From positions 3,328,001 through 3,392,000 of the forward strand of contig OZ242010.1 in assembly GCA_965204745.1 (NCBI GenBank): 64,000 nucleotides of DNA. The letters run 5' to 3'. The notes below the pieces were generated by a model. That model was not told where the DNA came from and did no database searches. It was given only the letters and a program-made list of their open reading frames with translations. Source of the stretch: Candidatus Latescibacterota bacterium. GTDB taxonomy: Bacteria > Latescibacterota > UBA2968. Both the position numbers and the translations under genes were made by a program. Of the stretch, positions 7,260-10,870 are shown one piece after another (position 1 is the first letter of the stretch; each line of letters opens with the position of its first letter).

Positions 7260-10200
7260 ATGAACCAATCTAAACTTCGTCAGTTGCTCGACCGTCTGTG
7301 CGGACTTCCAGAGAACGAATGGCTCGAGTTCAAGAAAGCGAAAAAGGGGTATGACTTCAATAAGTTAGGCCAGTATTTCTCCGCGCTGTCCAATGAAGCC
7401 AACCTCAACGGGCAAGCGTGCGGTTGGTTGGTATTCGGCGTAAGCGATGATCGTTCGGTTTGCGGCAGCCAGTTCCGCAAAGACCGAGCGGATCTTAACA
7501 GCTTGAAACATGAAATCGCCAATCATACGACTGGTGGCCTCACATTTGTCGATATTCACGTCGTTGAGCACCCGAACGGTCGCGTCGTGATGTTCGAGAT
7601 TCCGGCCGCATTACAAGGCATACCAACGGCGTGGAAAGAACATTGGTACGGACGCAATGGCGAGTCCCTAGGCGGTCTTAGCCTGATGGAATTGGAAAAA
7701 ATTCGGTCAAATTCTTCTGGCGGGCATCAAGACTGGAATCGCCACGAGTACGCCCCAGACTTGGCTATTGCCAACTTGCTTGGGTCATGGAATGAGCTAA
7801 ACGAAGCGGATGTAGAGATCGTGAGTCAACTGATCAATGATGAGGATTACGCAAAGTGGATTCTCAAAATGAGGGAGATGTTAAGCCAAGCGATAAGCCC
7901 TGTGAGATATGTAAATGGAAAATGGTATGTCGATGATCGAAAAGAACTGTGGCAGGCGTTGGGCAAACGAGTTTTTGACGAGAGCCTGAACGCCCTAAAA
8001 CAATGCGCTATCGCTGTCTTGTCCGAGTGCGATCCCCAGTTTGACTTACCTCCCGATGAACGCTATACCGCCCGTATCTCTGGAAAGACATTGAAGTACT
8101 CATCTACACTTCGGACAGGACTGACCGAAACGCTGGCACTGCTCGGCACTGCCCCCGATGCTTTGATCAATTTTTCACCTCAAGGTTGGAAGCCAAAAGA
8201 TACGGCTGATTTTGTCGTGCGAGAAATACTCGAGAATGCGGATTGGGTGTTGTGGGGAAGCCTTAGGGGTCTTCTCTCGACACTCGCAGAAGCAGCCCCG
8301 GATAAATTTTTGGATGCCGTGGAAAATGCCTTGCAACGATCCCTTTGCCCATTTGATGCGCTTTTCGCCCAAGAGGGTGCTCCGATCACTGGCAGCAGTT
8401 ATATGTCGGACTTGCTGTGGGCATTGGAAACACTCGCTTGGGATGCCGAGTACCTCGTCCGCGTATGTGTGATTCTCGGCAAACTCGCCAGCCGCGACCC
8501 GGGCGGCCCTTGGGCAAACCGTCCCGCCGATTCGCTGTCGATGATCTTATTGCCCTGGCTTCCACAAACGATCGCGCCAGTTGAAAAACGCAAAGTCGCC
8601 ATTCAAACGCTCTGCGATGAATTGCCAGAAATTGCTTGGAACTTGATCGTCAGCCTGTTGCCCGGCCAGAACCAGATAACCACTGGGACTCGCAAACCGG
8701 CCTGGCGCAATACCATACCCGTTGATTGGAAAGAAAAAGTTACCAGGCAGGATTATCGAGATCAAGTAGCGTTCTGCGCCGAACGCGCGGTTTCAATCGC
8801 AGGTTGTGATCCGGATAAACTCGGCGAACTGATTGACCATTTAGCCGGTTTTCCCAAACCTTCATTTCACGCGTTGCTCGAGACTTTAGCGTCTGATTCC
8901 ATTACAGCACTTTCAGAAGAAAAACGGTTACACCTTTGGGACAAACTCGTAAAATTCATATCCCGACACCGACGTTTATCGGGCGAAAAAGGGACTCGGA
9001 ACGATGGGTCGCTCGCGCCCATTGAGGCCGTTGCGAACGAGTTGGCTCCTAAGAATCCTTTGAATCTCTATCGCAGATTATTCAGCCGCAGTATTTGGGA
9101 TCACTCTACAAAAAGTGAAGATTGGACAAAGCAGCTCGATAGAGACCGTCAGCAAGCTATAAAAGAGATTTTGGCTTGCGGTGGGGTGGAGTTGGTCCTT
9201 CGATTCGCCGAAGTTGTCGAGGCCCCGTGGGATGTTGGTCGTTCTTTGGGTGCGATTGCCCAAGTGGAAAACGACAGACGCCTTCTGCCCGCATTGTTGG
9301 AAACCGAGAATGACAAACTCGCGCTGTTTGCAAATAACTATGTCAGAAGCCGCCAAAACATCGCTGGATGGAAATGGGTCGATGGCTTTGATATCTCGAA
9401 CTGGTCAGCTTCGCAAATAGGTCGATTCTTAGCCGCTTTGCCCTTCACGAGAGAAGCGTGGCACCGTGCTACAAAATGGCTCGGCAAGTCCGAAGAGGAG
9501 TACTGGAGCAAAACCAGCGCAAACCCATATAGTACCGATGAGGATCTCCGCTTTGCCATAGACAAACTGATCGCGCATGGCAGACCCCATGCGGCTATCA
9601 AATGTCTGATGTGCCAAATGGACCTCGGCAAACAGCCATTGGACAACGCTCTATGCGTAAAGGCTCTTAGGGCCGCCATTTCTTCTTATGAACCTTCCCA
9701 TGAAGTAGAGACGCATAGCATCATTGCAATCGTAAAGGCTTTACAGGACGATCCCAAAACCGATCCCGACGCGCTTTTTCAAATCGAATGGGCATATCTG
9801 CGCTTGCTCGACAAATATTATCACCCTGACGCATCGCCGAAGACATTGAAAAATAGGCTGGCTTCTGATCCCGAGTTTTTTTGTGAAGTGATACGCCTCG
9901 TCTATCGGTCAAAAAGGGAAACGGAATCTCCGCAACAACTCGATGACCGAGATAAAGTCATTGCCGACAACGCATACGAACTCCTCCGTAACTGGCAGAC
10001 TCCTCCAGGTACGCAAGCGGATGGTCGATTTTTGCCGGAACAATTCGAGAAGTGGTTCAAACGAACAAAAGAAGCGTGTGTTGAATCTGGACATCTCGAA
10101 GTCGCTCTCAGGCGTATAGGTGAAGTTCTCATTCATGCCCCACCGGATCCAAAAGGGCTGTGGATCCATCGAACCCTAGCATCTGCGCTCAACACAGAGG

Positions 10201-10508
10201 ATGCGGGGGAAATGAGGGATGGGTTCCGGGTCGGAATTTACAATGCTCGCGGGGTTCATGTGGTTGACCCAACGGGAAAACCAGAGCGAGAGCTCGCCGA
10301 AAAATACAGACAACAGGCCGAAGAAGTTGAAAATGCGGGCTATCACCGTTTTGCTATTACACTCCGGAACTTGGAAAAAGAATACAATCGGGAGGCGGAA
10401 GTATATGTCGCTGAGCATCAACGGGAAAGTGCCCGCCAATTGGCACGCCTCGGCGGGAGCGAGCCACAACTGCAATCCATACCACGCCAACGGACTGATC
10501 GCGCATGA
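7260..10508 (+). CDS. Schlafen/AlbA_2 N-terminal domain + long helical region + VapB-like C-terminal tail; probable defence protein
   Basis: ENEWLEFKKA...SALSNEAN...LVFGVSD (AlbA_2); long helical body ending ERELAEKYRQQAE..GYHRFA; tail RESARQLARLGGSEPQLQSIPRQR. Confidence 0.75.
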   Translation: MNQSKLRQLLDRLCGLPENEWLEFKKAKKGYDFNKLGQYFSALSNEANLNGQACGWLVFGVSDDRSVCGSQFRKDRADLNSLKHEIANHTTGGLTFVDIHVVEHPNGRVVMFEIPAALQGIPTAWKEHWYGRNGESLGGLSLMELEKIRSNSSGGHQDWNRHEYAPDLAIANLLGSWNELNEADVEIVSQLINDEDYAKWILKMREMLSQAISPVRYVNGKWYVDDRKELWQALGKRVFDESLNALKQCAIAVLSECDPQFDLPPDERYTARISGKTLKYSSTLRTGLTETLALLGTAPDALINFSPQGWKPKDTADFVVREILENADWVLWGSLRGLLSTLAEAAPDKFLDAVENALQRSLCPFDALFAQEGAPITGSSYMSDLLWALETLAWDAEYLVRVCVILGKLASRDPGGPWANRPADSLSMILLPWLPQTIAPVEKRKVAIQTLCDELPEIAWNLIVSLLPGQNQITTGTRKPAWRNTIPVDWKEKVTRQDYRDQVAFCAERAVSIAGCDPDKLGELIDHLAGFPKPSFHALLETLASDSITALSEEKRLHLWDKLVKFISRHRRLSGEKGTRNDGSLAPIEAVANELAPKNPLNLYRRLFSRSIWDHSTKSEDWTKQLDRDRQQAIKEILACGGVELVLRFAEVVEAPWDVGRSLGAIAQVENDRRLLPALLETENDKLALFANNYVRSRQNIAGWKWVDGFDISNWSASQIGRFLAALPFTREAWHRATKWLGKSEEEYWSKTSANPYSTDEDLRFAIDKLIAHGRPHAAIKCLMCQMDLGKQPLDNALCVKALRAAISSYEPSHEVETHSIIAIVKALQDDPKTDPDALFQIEWAYLRLLDKYYHPDASPKTLKNRLASDPEFFCEVIRLVYRSKRETESPQQLDDRDKVIADNAYELLRNWQTPPGTQADGRFLPEQFEKWFKRTKEACVESGHLEVALRRIGEVLIHAPPDPKGLWIHRTLASALNTEDAGEMRDGFRVGIYNARGVHVVDPTGKPERELAEKYRQQAEEVENAGYHRFAITLRNLEKEYNREAEVYVAEHQRESARQLARLGGSEPQLQSIPRQRTDRA

Positions 10509-10870
10509 TTTTAGTTGATACCTCCGTCTGGATTGATCATTTGAGTAGCGAAGAAAATCACTTGGTTATCCTATTAAATAATGGTCTGGTATTGACTCAC
10601 CCCATGGTCGTTGGAGAACTGGCTTGCGGCAATCTGAGCAATCGCGGAGCGATTTTGACGATGCTCAAAAATTTGCCCCAAGCATCGGTTGCCCCCGATG
10701 ACCAAGTGCTTCGCTTCATTGAACGGAACCAACTCATGGGCCGTGGTATCAACTATATTGATTTTCATCTGCTGACCGCCACAGCATTGACTAAAGCGAC
10801 CGAACTTTGGACACGCGATAAACGGCTTATGGATGCTGCTAAACAACTAAATCTCGCTTACGAAATTTAA
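10505..10870 (+). CDS. vapC: VapC family PIN toxin
   Basis: MILVDTSVWIDHL, HPMVVGELACG, GINYIDFHLL, LWTRDKRL; ATGA overlap with the upstream gene. Confidence 0.92.
   Translation: MILVDTSVWIDHLSSEENHLVILLNNGLVLTHPMVVGELACGNLSNRGAILTMLKNLPQASVAPDDQVLRFIERNQLMGRGINYIDFHLLTATALTKATELWTRDKRLMDAAKQLNLAYEI

Follow-up and report, generated by a model that had tools for sequence, protein, structure and literature searches.

A giant Schlafen-solenoid protein with a VapB-derived tail as the apparent antitoxin of an adjacent VapC in Candidatus Latescibacterota

What restrains an intact VapC toxin when the gene directly upstream encodes a giant protein headed by a Schlafen nuclease? This question is raised by a locus within a 64,000-nucleotide stretch (the window) of contig OZ242010.1 from a Candidatus Latescibacterota bacterium. 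A VapC toxin pair welded onto an immune gene is an unusual arrangement, and it bears on two open questions, namely the purpose of chromosomal toxin-antitoxin pairs and the retention of costly island genes despite cassette turnover. The features of the locus are collected in Table 1.

Table 1. Features of the giant/vapC locus, in positions of the window.
Feature	Position	Strand	Basis or remark
160-nt duplicate (95%) of the Type III methyltransferase 3' end (1041-1200)	6978..7137	+	Repeat D1, directly upstream of the giant ORF
Promoter-like site TTGACG-17-TATTTT	7177..7205	+	No better than chance: 3 sites found, 3.6 expected
Giant ORF (Schlafen nuclease, alpha-solenoid and VapB-derived tail)	7260..10508	+	1082 aa, reading frame open
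Schlafen/AlbA_2 domain (SLFN_AlbA_2), aa 18-136	7311..7667	+	Pfam PF04326, E 2.3e-13
Catalytic motif Ex4ExK, ENEWLEFK (E18...E23.K25)	7311..7334	+	Definition from the available text of PMC13056530
HEAT/ARM-like alpha-solenoid, aa ~156-1055 (~900 aa), conserved family core	7725..10424	+	Homologue coverage, helical fold
VapB-derived toxin-binding tail (predicted), aa 1055-1082, RESARQLARLGGSEPQLQSIPRQRTDRA	10422..10505	+	Homology to PF09957 VapB C-terminus; predicted contacts
vapC, PIN-domain toxin, 121 aa, intact, acidic D5/E38/D86/D105 present	10505..10870	+	Pfam PIN
ATGA, vapC start overlapping giant stop	10505..10508	+	Translational coupling inferred
PDC-S70-like gene remnant and hairpin (10925-10957)	10871..10957	+	Hairpin repeats 6173-6214, 6458-6488 (D2, D3, I1)

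An earlier note on this DNA had described the giant protein as a Schlafen domain followed by a helical middle and a tail, and this three-part anatomy was recovered by the Pfam match, the AF2 model and an alignment of the tail. In the AF2 model (pLDDT 79.1), residues 165-1063 are helical throughout and the final 19 residues are disordered. Aside from SLFN_AlbA_2, the Pfam scan assigned no family to the remaining 932 residues. An alternative-frame ORF at 10219..10518 was rejected as a gene because a stop interrupts the frame in two relatives (L007 and L008).

Since the DNA at the junction reads ...cgcgcATGAtttta..., the ATG of vapC shares bases with the TGA of the giant gene, and with both frames open the proposed overlap with an intact vapC stands. 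Junctions of the ATGA type also occur in four other species genomes (L028, L031, L032 and L033), and the antitoxin-toxin spacing among canonical VapBC relatives is -9 to +15 nt. We considered and rejected an assembly artefact: position 10505 was spanned by contigs of 4/4 public runs (4 studies) with no indel listed there, and the same junction type is present in the four other genomes. The toxin has a PIN domain at residues 2-112 (Pfam E 1.5e-7), and an NCBIfam VapC model matched it with an E of 2.1e-6, under the cut-off for that model (27.9 vs 80 bits). In the VapC alignment every sequence has D5 and E38, 17 of 18 have D86, and position 105 is D or E.

By alignment, the final 28 residues of the giant protein share homology with PF09957 VapB antitoxins in their C-terminal half, a likeness that the earlier note had put forward. 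Distant homologues of the VapC (42-52% identical) are preceded by an ORF of ~61-70 aa in 15/15 loci from other families, and a Pfam scan of three of these small ORFs assigned all three to PF09957 VapB_antitoxin (E ~1e-15 each). The C-terminal halves of the small VapBs align with the giant tail, and 15 of the 24 core residues are identical to those of L011. An HMM was built from 13 distinct small VapBs that precede distant VapC homologues. In an unfiltered search through every one of the 100,430 six-frame ORFs of at least 30 aa from the same genome, its positions 38-63 matched giant residues 1055-1080 (E 0.0031, 19.8 bits among these ORFs). The giant protein was the sole match at the inclusion threshold (next E 0.2); no separate vapB of the same family was found in this genome, as the earlier note had claimed. 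When searched against PF09957, the last 40 or 80 residues of the giant protein gave no match even at E<=10. The HMM result by itself is modest (19.8 bits), and position, alignment and the complex model are the main basis for the homology. The portion of VapB that Pfam models, its N-terminal half (aa 1 to ~37), is absent, so VapB-type autoregulation by the giant protein is unlikely; at 1082 aa, the protein departs from the usual description of an antitoxin that is small and begins with a DNA-binding/dimerisation domain.

The complex model of the tail with VapC yielded an ipSAE of 0.74 (runs 0.74, 0.86 and 0.71), compared to 0.02 for the best of three controls; contacts agreed by at least 96%, and the partner pLDDT was at least 68. 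The 0.74 mark was reached by 58/80 solved complexes and 2/110 mismatched pairs, counts that are only rough because our own alignments were fed to the complex model. Predicted contacts involve giant residues 1053-1077 and VapC residues 6-7, 38-39 and 85-86, an interface that adjoins catalytic D5, E38 and D86 and places the tail over the active site. A PDB search with the VapC profile for a sequence-related solved complex returned 0 matches at E<=0.01. The giant protein thus appears to be the antitoxin of the downstream VapC, an idea of the earlier note that gains support from the tail/VapB homology together with the predicted interface.

At the other end of the protein, the model of the Schlafen domain (pLDDT 90.8) matched DIP2311, SLFN12/13/11/14 and the SAMD9 tRNase domain in Foldseek (best match E 1.9e-6, TMq 0.61), and E18, E23 and K25 are invariant in 32/32 aligned Schlafen N-domains. 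Because the Ex4ExK motif is intact, the putative Schlafen tRNase effector proposed earlier is plausible from its sequence.

Between these ends lies the core of a very large unnamed family, comprising thousands of 50%-identity clusters. Its relatives number 6613 representatives at E<=1e-3 (2768 at <=1e-30), nearly all of which match only residues ~156-1055 of the query. Structure searches with Foldseek and VIA found generic HEAT/ARM solenoids only among the matches listed (best Z 9.2). The N-terminal domains in the family include PNP_UDP_1, GT4-conflict, SIR2_2, Metallophos, TIR_2, SLFN, Abi_C and HTH_3; in an even sample of representatives, 38/44 N-domains had no Pfam family. PNP, GT4-conflict, SIR2, Metallophos, TIR and Abi_C N-domains of relatives match PADLOC effector models. 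The giant protein itself gave no match to the PADLOC models, which in relatives cover the N-domains only and leave the solenoid uncovered; the effector-swapping core thus lacks both a Pfam and a PADLOC model. Swapping of N-domains on a shared solenoid is typical of one-gene defence sensors, and the effector-solenoid family is a candidate one-gene defence system.

The tail is found in 58 of the 120 relatives (clusters) listed, and nine species genomes, all from a single genus of Candidatus Latescibacterota, encode tailed giant proteins. In the tree the tailed forms make up one clade, sister to tail-less Schlafen forms, which indicates that the tail arose once. The fallback of the earlier note, an accidental singleton, fared unevenly: the fusion is not a singleton, whereas its origin is still well described as a deletion-fusion that was retained for its neutralisation of VapC. 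The fusion joint sits exactly at the normal C-terminus of the solenoid family. Column identity in the tail core is 0.94 among tailed relatives, compared with 0.80-0.92 in other segments, and in one member (P0153) the N-terminal effector has been swapped to TIR with the tail kept. VapC copies are 65-81% identical, intact and retain the acidic residues. In 4/9 genomes that retain a tailed giant protein, vapC was deleted via two distinct deletions; the tail is still intact in these four genomes, and no VapC homologue was detected elsewhere in them at E<=1e-8. In several members nested within the clade of tailed forms, the tail is truncated or missing.

A parallel case occurs in the same lineage. 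A BrnT toxin gene overlaps by 29 nt the region for a conserved 37-aa N-terminal head. Across eight loci, this head is fused either to the paralogous solenoid protein or to bodies of the FRG-TPR or TPR-only type. The BrnT/37-aa head is a second, independent graft parallel to the VapB tail; since the BrnT-type graft is found on three different protein bodies, toxin-adjacent welds may be favoured in this lineage.

The locus is best read as a type II toxin-antitoxin pair of non-canonical form, which either addicts the cell to a defence gene or guards that gene. In fuller form, we consider it somewhat better than an even bet that a defence protein with a captured VapB C-half acts as the VapC antitoxin and addicts the cell to the defence cassette, with VapC as an accessory. 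The giant protein would be a one-gene defence sensor-effector, with an N-terminal Schlafen RNase and an effector-swapping solenoid of ~900 aa, that in one Latescibacterota clade took up from a PF09957 VapB the C-half that binds the toxin, lost the N-half that binds DNA, and so became the antitoxin of the adjacent downstream VapC. According to the predicted binding, the last helix and disordered tail (aa ~1053-1077) would cover the VapC active-site face and inhibit the toxin. Translation of vapC is presumably coupled at the ATGA, in which case VapC would never exceed its inhibitor. As the antitoxin can no longer be separated from the defence gene, VapC would be freed whenever the giant gene is deleted, truncated or silenced, and the pair would thereby addict the cell to its defence cassette, a role that we infer from the pattern of gain and loss. 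The Schlafen nuclease, under solenoid control, would remain the primary effector, and loss of VapC would be harmless provided that it goes before the tail. VapC may also fire as a back-up when a phage halts synthesis of the giant protein or destroys it; this idea is weak because a large stable protein makes an odd 'labile antitoxin'. Since vapC was deleted at least twice with the tail kept, and since several lineages went on to truncate the tail, the sequences indicate that VapC is accessory rather than a core effector and behaves like an addiction toxin. The retention of an intact VapC with its acidic residues at 65% identity would fit a selected effector role likewise, and the intact tail in the four vapC-less genomes runs contrary to pure addiction logic, although those losses may be recent. 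If the tail does neutralise VapC, the toxin-binding peptide of a classical antitoxin is a module transferable to an unrelated 1000-residue immune protein, and a defence gene can become its own addiction module or acquire a second, releasable RNase.

VapC might instead be released on cue when a phage is detected, as the earlier note suggested. A phage protein bound to the solenoid would then activate the Schlafen RNase and also displace the tail to free VapC as a second RNase, much as PARIS releases AriB from AriA. The tail emerges straight from the last solenoid helix, so that a conformational change could reach it; its core is conserved as strongly as any segment of the giant protein, and the acidic residues of VapC persist across the divergent copies. 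A sensor-held toxin freed on cue is established for PARIS (available text of PMC11464382), PanA antitoxins are proposed to bear linear neutralising elements on putative sensor domains (available text of PMC10440598), and a paralogue bears the second toxin/graft pair with BrnT. We nevertheless find release on cue rather unlikely, given the two independent deletions that removed vapC and retained the giant protein, the tail-less and tail-truncated proteins nested within the tailed clade, the effector that the giant protein already possesses, and the thousands of tail-less members, for which no conserved downstream partner was seen across 18 loci examined. Similarly doubtful is a whole class of 'sensor-tethered antitoxins', in which neutralising peptides would be repeatedly grafted onto repeat-protein sensors and a trigger would free the toxin-antitoxin RNase in PARIS-like fashion; if true, a phage trigger on a solenoid or TPR would unleash a classical RNase toxin beside the sensor's own effector.

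At the opposite extreme, a deletion may have joined the vapB 3' half to the upstream gene by accident, with tail loss lethal in the presence of vapC and the fusion conferring no benefit. The single origin, the position of the joint at the usual C-terminus of the family, and the loss of vapC with truncation of the tail after it in several lineages, the order in which a selfish toxin-antitoxin pair should decay, are all compatible with such an accident. It is nonetheless improbable in our view, since the fusion lasted until identity had fallen to about 65% in both the giant protein and VapC, which nevertheless stayed intact, the tail survived the effector swap to TIR, and an analogous BrnT-side graft is found on three protein bodies. 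Two further explanations are very unlikely. The actual antitoxin might be a small product (~98 aa) of an internal in-frame ATG at residue 985, making the full-length fusion incidental; this ATG (10212) has GGGGGAA ahead of it, and the product would hold the last helices and the tail. Met985, however, belongs to a ..MR.GF.. motif that is conserved family-wide, also in tail-less members, and is thus explained by the giant protein itself; moreover, the G-rich stretch is very close to the ATG and no promoter-like site stands out. We attach just as little weight to a tail that no longer binds VapC, the toxin being inactive or neutralised by another factor. The support for binding comes from prediction, and the NCBIfam score of the toxin is under the cut-off; against these points stand the contrast of the complex model with its controls, the intact acidic residues, the lack of another VapB of the same family in this genome, and the high conservation of the tail.

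The arrangement favoured here, an addictive antitoxin carried on a defence protein, shares elements with several known systems. Like canonical VapBC with a PF09957 VapB, it has a PIN toxin directly downstream that overlaps the antitoxin frame, and ~28 C-terminal antitoxin residues that are VapB-homologous and predicted to lie over the toxin active site; the antitoxin here is 1082 aa in length rather than ~65, and the carrier is a nuclease-bearing defence protein. CapRel, which reportedly combines toxin and antitoxin in a single chain with the antitoxin domain as sensor, also has an antitoxin element covalently attached to a defence effector, whereas the toxin here is a separate gene and the chain with the antitoxin peptide already bears another effector. 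PanA antitoxins neutralise their toxin through a linear Phd-C element, with the Panacea domain as a proposed sensor (Ernits et al. 2023, available text of PMC10440598), and similarly place a short neutralising element of a classical antitoxin on an unrelated, larger and possibly cue-sensing domain; in contrast, the carrier here is a ~1050-aa effector-plus-solenoid of another family, the element is VapB-C instead of Phd-C, and the toxin is a PIN RNase. In PARIS, the scaffold AriA keeps hold of the nuclease toxin AriB until it senses a phage protein (available text of PMC11464382), a functional analogy for a nuclease toxin kept inactive by a large immune sensor that bears on release on cue; the giant protein and VapC lack ABC ATPase and TOPRIM families, and the inhibitor is a borrowed antitoxin peptide.

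As for the effector and sensor portions, prokaryotic Schlafen defence proteins (pSlfn; Perez Taboada et al. 2026) join an N-terminal PF04326 nuclease with Ex4(E/D)xK to a putative sensor that varies among them, and they lie inside defence islands, according to the available text of PMC13056530. The giant protein likewise has PF04326 with a Schlafen fold, the Ex4(E/D)xK motif and defence genes within 10 kb; its sensor differs in being a ~900-aa solenoid without a Pfam family, which would place it among the 1,020 'unannotated' pSlfn fusions counted in the available text of that paper. The main text of PMC13056530 mentions none of VapC, PIN, antitoxin or toxin-antitoxin. DSR2 consists of SIR2, MID and an alpha-solenoid CTD with which it senses the phage tail tube (available text of PMC11850899 and PMC11087589). 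As proposed for the giant protein, its single polypeptide has the effector at the N-terminus and an alpha-solenoid sensor at the C-terminus; a SIR2-headed member (P0014) also exists in the solenoid family. DSR2 has no toxin-antitoxin graft, no sequence relation between it and the giant protein was detected with the PADLOC models, and it was absent among the 50 Foldseek and 50 VIA matches listed.

The surroundings form a defence island. Within 10 kb lie a Type III methyltransferase, a CBASS cyclase (E 2e-145) with its E2 and a patatin effector (E 3e-110), and an RmrA-like gene; the island also includes a PDC-S70-like gene. The operon likely ends at the PDC-S70-like remnant and hairpin, and such a remnant also follows vapC in L028. 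Loose contig ends in other public runs lead into the methyltransferase 3' end, the sequence that is duplicated directly upstream of the giant gene; cassettes are shuffled around the giant/vapC locus, and the island is recombination-prone.

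The anatomy of the giant–vapC locus is secure. The genome is a 5.48-Mb single contig (window at G000:C1:3328001-3392000), and at the junction, ...cgcgcATGAtttta..., the stop codon of the large ORF is overlapped by the start of the small one; contigs from all four public runs, representing four studies, span it. Pfam placed SLFN_AlbA_2 at aa 18-136 of the giant (E 2.3e-13) and assigned the small protein to the PIN domain (E 1.5e-7), and the Pfam scan found no family in the other 932 aa of the giant. A scan for promoters and terminators at the locus gave counts no better than those of shuffles.

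Features of the giant–vapC locus, its upstream neighborhood and the paralogue locus (window positions except where a contig is named)
Feature	Position	Strand	Length	E value	Remark
Type III methyltransferase 3' end	3-1151			6.5e-199	
CBASS oligonucleotide cyclase	1615-2928			2e-145	
CBASS E2-like	2928-3362			2.7e-44	
CBASS patatin phospholipase effector	3295-4440			3e-110	
RmrA-like HTH/M78 peptidase protein	4652-5908			1e-31	
PDC-S70-like protein	5913-6431		172 aa		4-nt gap after RmrA-like gene
HigB/HigA-like pair	6394-6944				directly upstream of giant
giant ORF	7260..10508	+	1082 aa		
vapC ORF	10505..10870	+	121 aa		
BrnT + paralogue locus	G000:C1:1347276-1351464				L003/L144; further loci L145-L150, L168

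An earlier note had likened the tail of the giant to a VapB C-terminus and had reported no separate vapB, and both claims held up. When 61 related genomes were searched with VapC, 27 of them matched (E ≤ 1e-8), and the 20 loci listed showed two upstream patterns. In five loci of the same genus (VapC 100, 81, 68, 67, and 65% identical), a long upstream ORF carries the same terminal tail. In 15 loci of other families (VapC 42-52% identical), the upstream ORF is small, ∼61-70 aa, and the three of these that were scanned are PF09957 VapB_antitoxin (E 5e-16 to 5e-15). Column by column, the last ∼28 residues of the giant align with the small VapBs over their C-terminal halves, and relatives with a longer linker share with these VapBs an extra aligned stretch, ..LI.RES... 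An HMM built from 13 distinct small VapBs was used for an unfiltered search of all 100,430 six-frame ORFs (at least 30 aa) of the own genome; its sole match below the inclusion threshold was the giant ORF (E 0.0031; next ORF, E 0.2), with HMM positions 38-63 matching giant aa 1055-1080. The genome is thus without an ordinary vapB of this family, and the giant lacks VapB's N-terminal half. Searches of the last 40 and 80 aa against Pfam and NCBIfam gave no VapB match; the sole matches, to DUF6074 (E 0.045) and to a model of RlmH (E 0.024), were taken as chance. The 47-position Pfam model reaches the tail at its edge at most. The tail region 1033-1082 yielded three candidates among shorter proteins, none at E ≤ 10, with a 5-residue word filter too strict for so short a query; under the same filter, region 1040-1082 yielded six candidates among near-length proteins, of which just the three closest clusters were recovered as matches. 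Both searches are uninformative on tails carried by other scaffolds.

VapC has retained its acidic residues: D5 and E38 do not vary, 17 of 18 sequences have D86, and position 105 holds D or E. Modeling of the tail with VapC, a check proposed in the earlier note, favored an interaction. With VapC (alignment A2, its homologues) and giant aa 1048-1082 (alignment A3, tail plus VapB C-termini) as input, the complex gave an ipSAE of 0.74 (runs 0.74, 0.86, and 0.71) versus 0.02 for the best of three controls; at least 96% of contacts agreed between runs, and the partner pLDDT was at least 68. Among solved complexes, 58 of 80 attain this mark, as do 2 of 110 mismatched pairs; these counts are rough here because our own alignments were used. 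The predicted interface joins giant aa 1053-1077 to VapC residues 6-7, 10, 12-17, 20-29, 38-58, and 83-86, on the face bearing D5, E38, and D86; the tail is thus predicted to bind over the VapC active site. PIN-antitoxin complexes are generally well represented among solved structures. The VapC profile had no match at E ≤ 0.01 among PDB sequences, so the score is unlikely to reflect a close complex already learned by the predictor. In the AF2 model of the giant, the last helix covers aa 1029-1063 and aa 1064-1082 are disordered, as would be expected of a toxin-binding peptide without its partner.

Ahead of the tail lies a solenoid of a large family. An exhaustive HMMER search of cluster representatives matched 6613 at E ≤ 1e-3 and 2768 at E ≤ 1e-30. 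Nearly all match query aa ∼156-1055 alone, with 0-520 other residues in front, and they end at the equivalent of giant aa ∼1046-1056; the tail was absent from all 150 matches listed. The core is a HEAT/ARM-type alpha-solenoid (pLDDT >90 over most of aa 160-560 and 870-1050) with only generic fold matches (karyopherins, CAND1, Pds5, FANCI/D2, PP2A-A); whole-model searches gave a Foldseek TM of at most 0.19 and a best VIA Z of 9.2 over model residues 178-618. The single match of the giant profile to PDB sequences (E 0.054) was judged spurious. The nearest described architecture is that of DSR2, set out in parts of PMC11850899 and PMC11087589 as SIR2, MID, and an alpha-solenoid CTD; no sequence relation to it was found, and it was not among the Foldseek and VIA matches listed, which is no proof that the folds differ.

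The N-terminal domains seen in the family include PNP_UDP_1, GT4-conflict, SIR2_2, Metallophos, and TIR_2; in an even sample of 44 representatives, SLFN, PNP, TIR, SIR2, Abi_C, and Metallophos occurred once each and 38 had no Pfam family. PADLOC matched only N-domains and never the solenoid (short-pAgo SIR2 at E 1e-101, CBASS PN-superfamily and endonuclease effectors, and Thoeris/bSEFIR TIR); its models did not match the giant, and a tail-less paralogue in the same genome had a weak match to PD-Lambda-4_A (E 0.003). No conserved downstream partner was found in 18 loci of tail-less members. Swapped N-domains and the lack of a conserved downstream gene are the signature of a one-gene sensor-effector defense family. 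A distant solenoid branch (24-29% identical, ∼1350-1380 aa) has a HigA-like HTH at its N-terminus (L044, L046, L049, L056, L057, and 24 plasmid records), one plasmid copy being named 'HigA family addiction module antitoxin' by NCBI; no HigB was found upstream in five genome loci or in one of the plasmids.

According to parts of PMC13056530, bacterial Schlafens fused to sensors provide phage defense through tRNA cleavage, for which the Ex4ExK motif is needed. In the giant this motif is E18...E23.K25, invariant in 32 of 32 aligned N-domains, and the Schlafen domain model (pLDDT 90.8) matches DIP2311, SLFN11/12/13/14, and the SAMD9 tRNase domain. With the motif intact and these model matches, the Schlafen head looks active. 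VapC, PIN, antitoxin, and toxin-antitoxin do not occur in the main text of PMC13056530. Our literature search found no description of a Schlafen or solenoid protein with a VapB tail, and no named family to which the solenoid belongs; Supplementary Table 2 of that paper may list the architecture.

The fusion is no singleton. Of the 120 best clusters (90% identity) from a word-indexed search, 58 have the tail in full, and 56 of these have PF04326. P0153, a metagenome relative of 1074 aa, is 90% identical over solenoid and tail with TIR_2 (E 1.5e-31) replacing Schlafen, and is a recent effector swap in which the VapB tail was kept. P0216 is tailed, short, and without a Pfam match; P0201 and P0218 terminate six residues into the tail. 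Mean column identity in the tail core of tailed proteins is 0.94 versus 0.80-0.92 in other segments. In a midpoint-rooted FastTree tree of 75 sequences, built on the solenoid region, all tailed proteins form one clade, with tail-less Schlafen-headed proteins as its sister. Nested within it are members with other N-domains and seven proteins that all end within the linker (P0212, P0217, P0229, P0238, P0219, P0220, and P0223), so we read the tail as gained once and then lost repeatedly.

Full-length tailed proteins occur in 9 of 168 genomes of the phylum, all of one genus, and vapC with its ATGA overlap is kept in five of the nine. At L029 and L030, an in-frame deletion has left just the final three vapC codons, fused to the tail, whereas at L034 and L035 only the first 13-19 vapC codons remain; the differing forms indicate two independent deletions. 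The tail is intact in all four vapC-less genomes, and none has a VapC homologue elsewhere at E ≤ 1e-8. Across the tailed proteins as a whole, vapC and then the tail have been lost repeatedly. A single-protein search of genome contigs returned three loci, all in Candidatus Latescibacterota MAGs. A pattern search of metagenome contigs (alignment A5) gave no further full-length tailed locus, its patterns lying in the Schlafen domain; of the 80 loci kept, 79 match within query aa 1-214 only, and L064 matches aa 146-632. On the contigs L065-L143, Schlafen N-domains 43-70% identical to that of the giant are joined to other C-terminal parts. A relative is encoded at 556 of the 593 metagenome pattern matches.

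The stretch around the giant is a defense island, with a G+C content of 0.46-0.54 (1-kb windows starting 501-10501) versus ∼0.60 on either side. The HigB-like ORF is weak (E 0.0023, below the Pfam cut-off) and overlaps the HigA-like HTH_3 protein (E 1.6e-11). Positions 1041-1200 at the methyltransferase 3' end, comprising the last ∼110 nt of the gene plus downstream sequence, are copied just upstream of the giant at 6978-7137 (160 nt, 95%), and this region looks like a hotspot of defense cassette exchange. In other runs, the sequence leading up to 6981 continues directly from the methyltransferase gene. Right after vapC, at 10871-10912 and 10925-10955, there are second copies of pieces of the PDC-S70-like gene and its hairpin (6173-6214 and 6458-6488); a relative locus, L028, has a 78-aa PDC-S70-like remnant after vapC, and the closest relative has its giant-vapC pair upstream of this gene remnant and of higBA. 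Three other runs have contigs that connect 10955 back to 6900. In contigs of run X3, depth at 6900-7193 and 10869-11162 is 3-4× that over the giant gene, indicating that these flanks hold sequence repeated in the community or genome. At ∼14375-14920, between a 360-aa ORF (13127-14209, −) and a 1003-aa ORF (14842-17853), overlapping frames on both strands encode proline/serine/leucine-rich low-complexity repeats, which suggests a tandem DNA repeat.

We infer that translational coupling would hold the level of VapC at or below that of its inhibitor. With the antitoxin built into the defense gene, VapC would be set free whenever that gene was lost or truncated, and the giant-VapC pair would for this reason stabilize the defense cassette in a recombining island; it might also serve as a back-up if the giant were destroyed or no longer made. 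For PanA antitoxins, the idea of joining a linear neutralizing element to a putative sensor domain has already been published (PMC10440598). Sequestration of a toxin by a sensor is established for PARIS (PMC11464382). VapC could instead be an obligatory effector released by a trigger, which would accord with its staying intact over long divergence. However, vapC has proved dispensable, and decay took the toxin first and the tail later; these observations fit stabilization of the cassette better than an obligatory trigger-released effector.

The paralogue is 40% identical to the giant over aa 106-1048, has no tail, and overlaps with its first 29 nt the end of a BrnT toxin gene (PF04365, E 1.3e-13). 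A PIN_3 gene (E 3.2e-6; L003:4436-4915) lies 74 nt downstream of it with no small antitoxin gene between; as a conserved partner it was rejected, being absent from the orthologous locus L036. An N-terminal head of ∼37 aa follows close BrnT homologues (62-100% identical) at eight loci in seven genomes, on three bodies: an unknown domain plus solenoid (two loci), FRG plus TPR (one, own genome), and TPR only (five). The head HMM matched exactly two ORFs in the own genome, the paralogue and the FRG-TPR ORF (E ∼1e-21). Derivation of the head from BrnA was unsupported, since the heads went unmatched when all own-genome ORFs were searched with an HMM built from six small partners of BrnT (L152-L157) and Pfam gave no BrnA match on the head at E ≤ 1; the pairing of EFDY/EYDF between head and BrnT partners in MAFFT may be chance. 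The head is possibly another type of grafted antitoxin peptide, and this parallel beside the VapB tail suggests that the welding of putative toxin-neutralizing peptides to repeat proteins is favored in the lineage.
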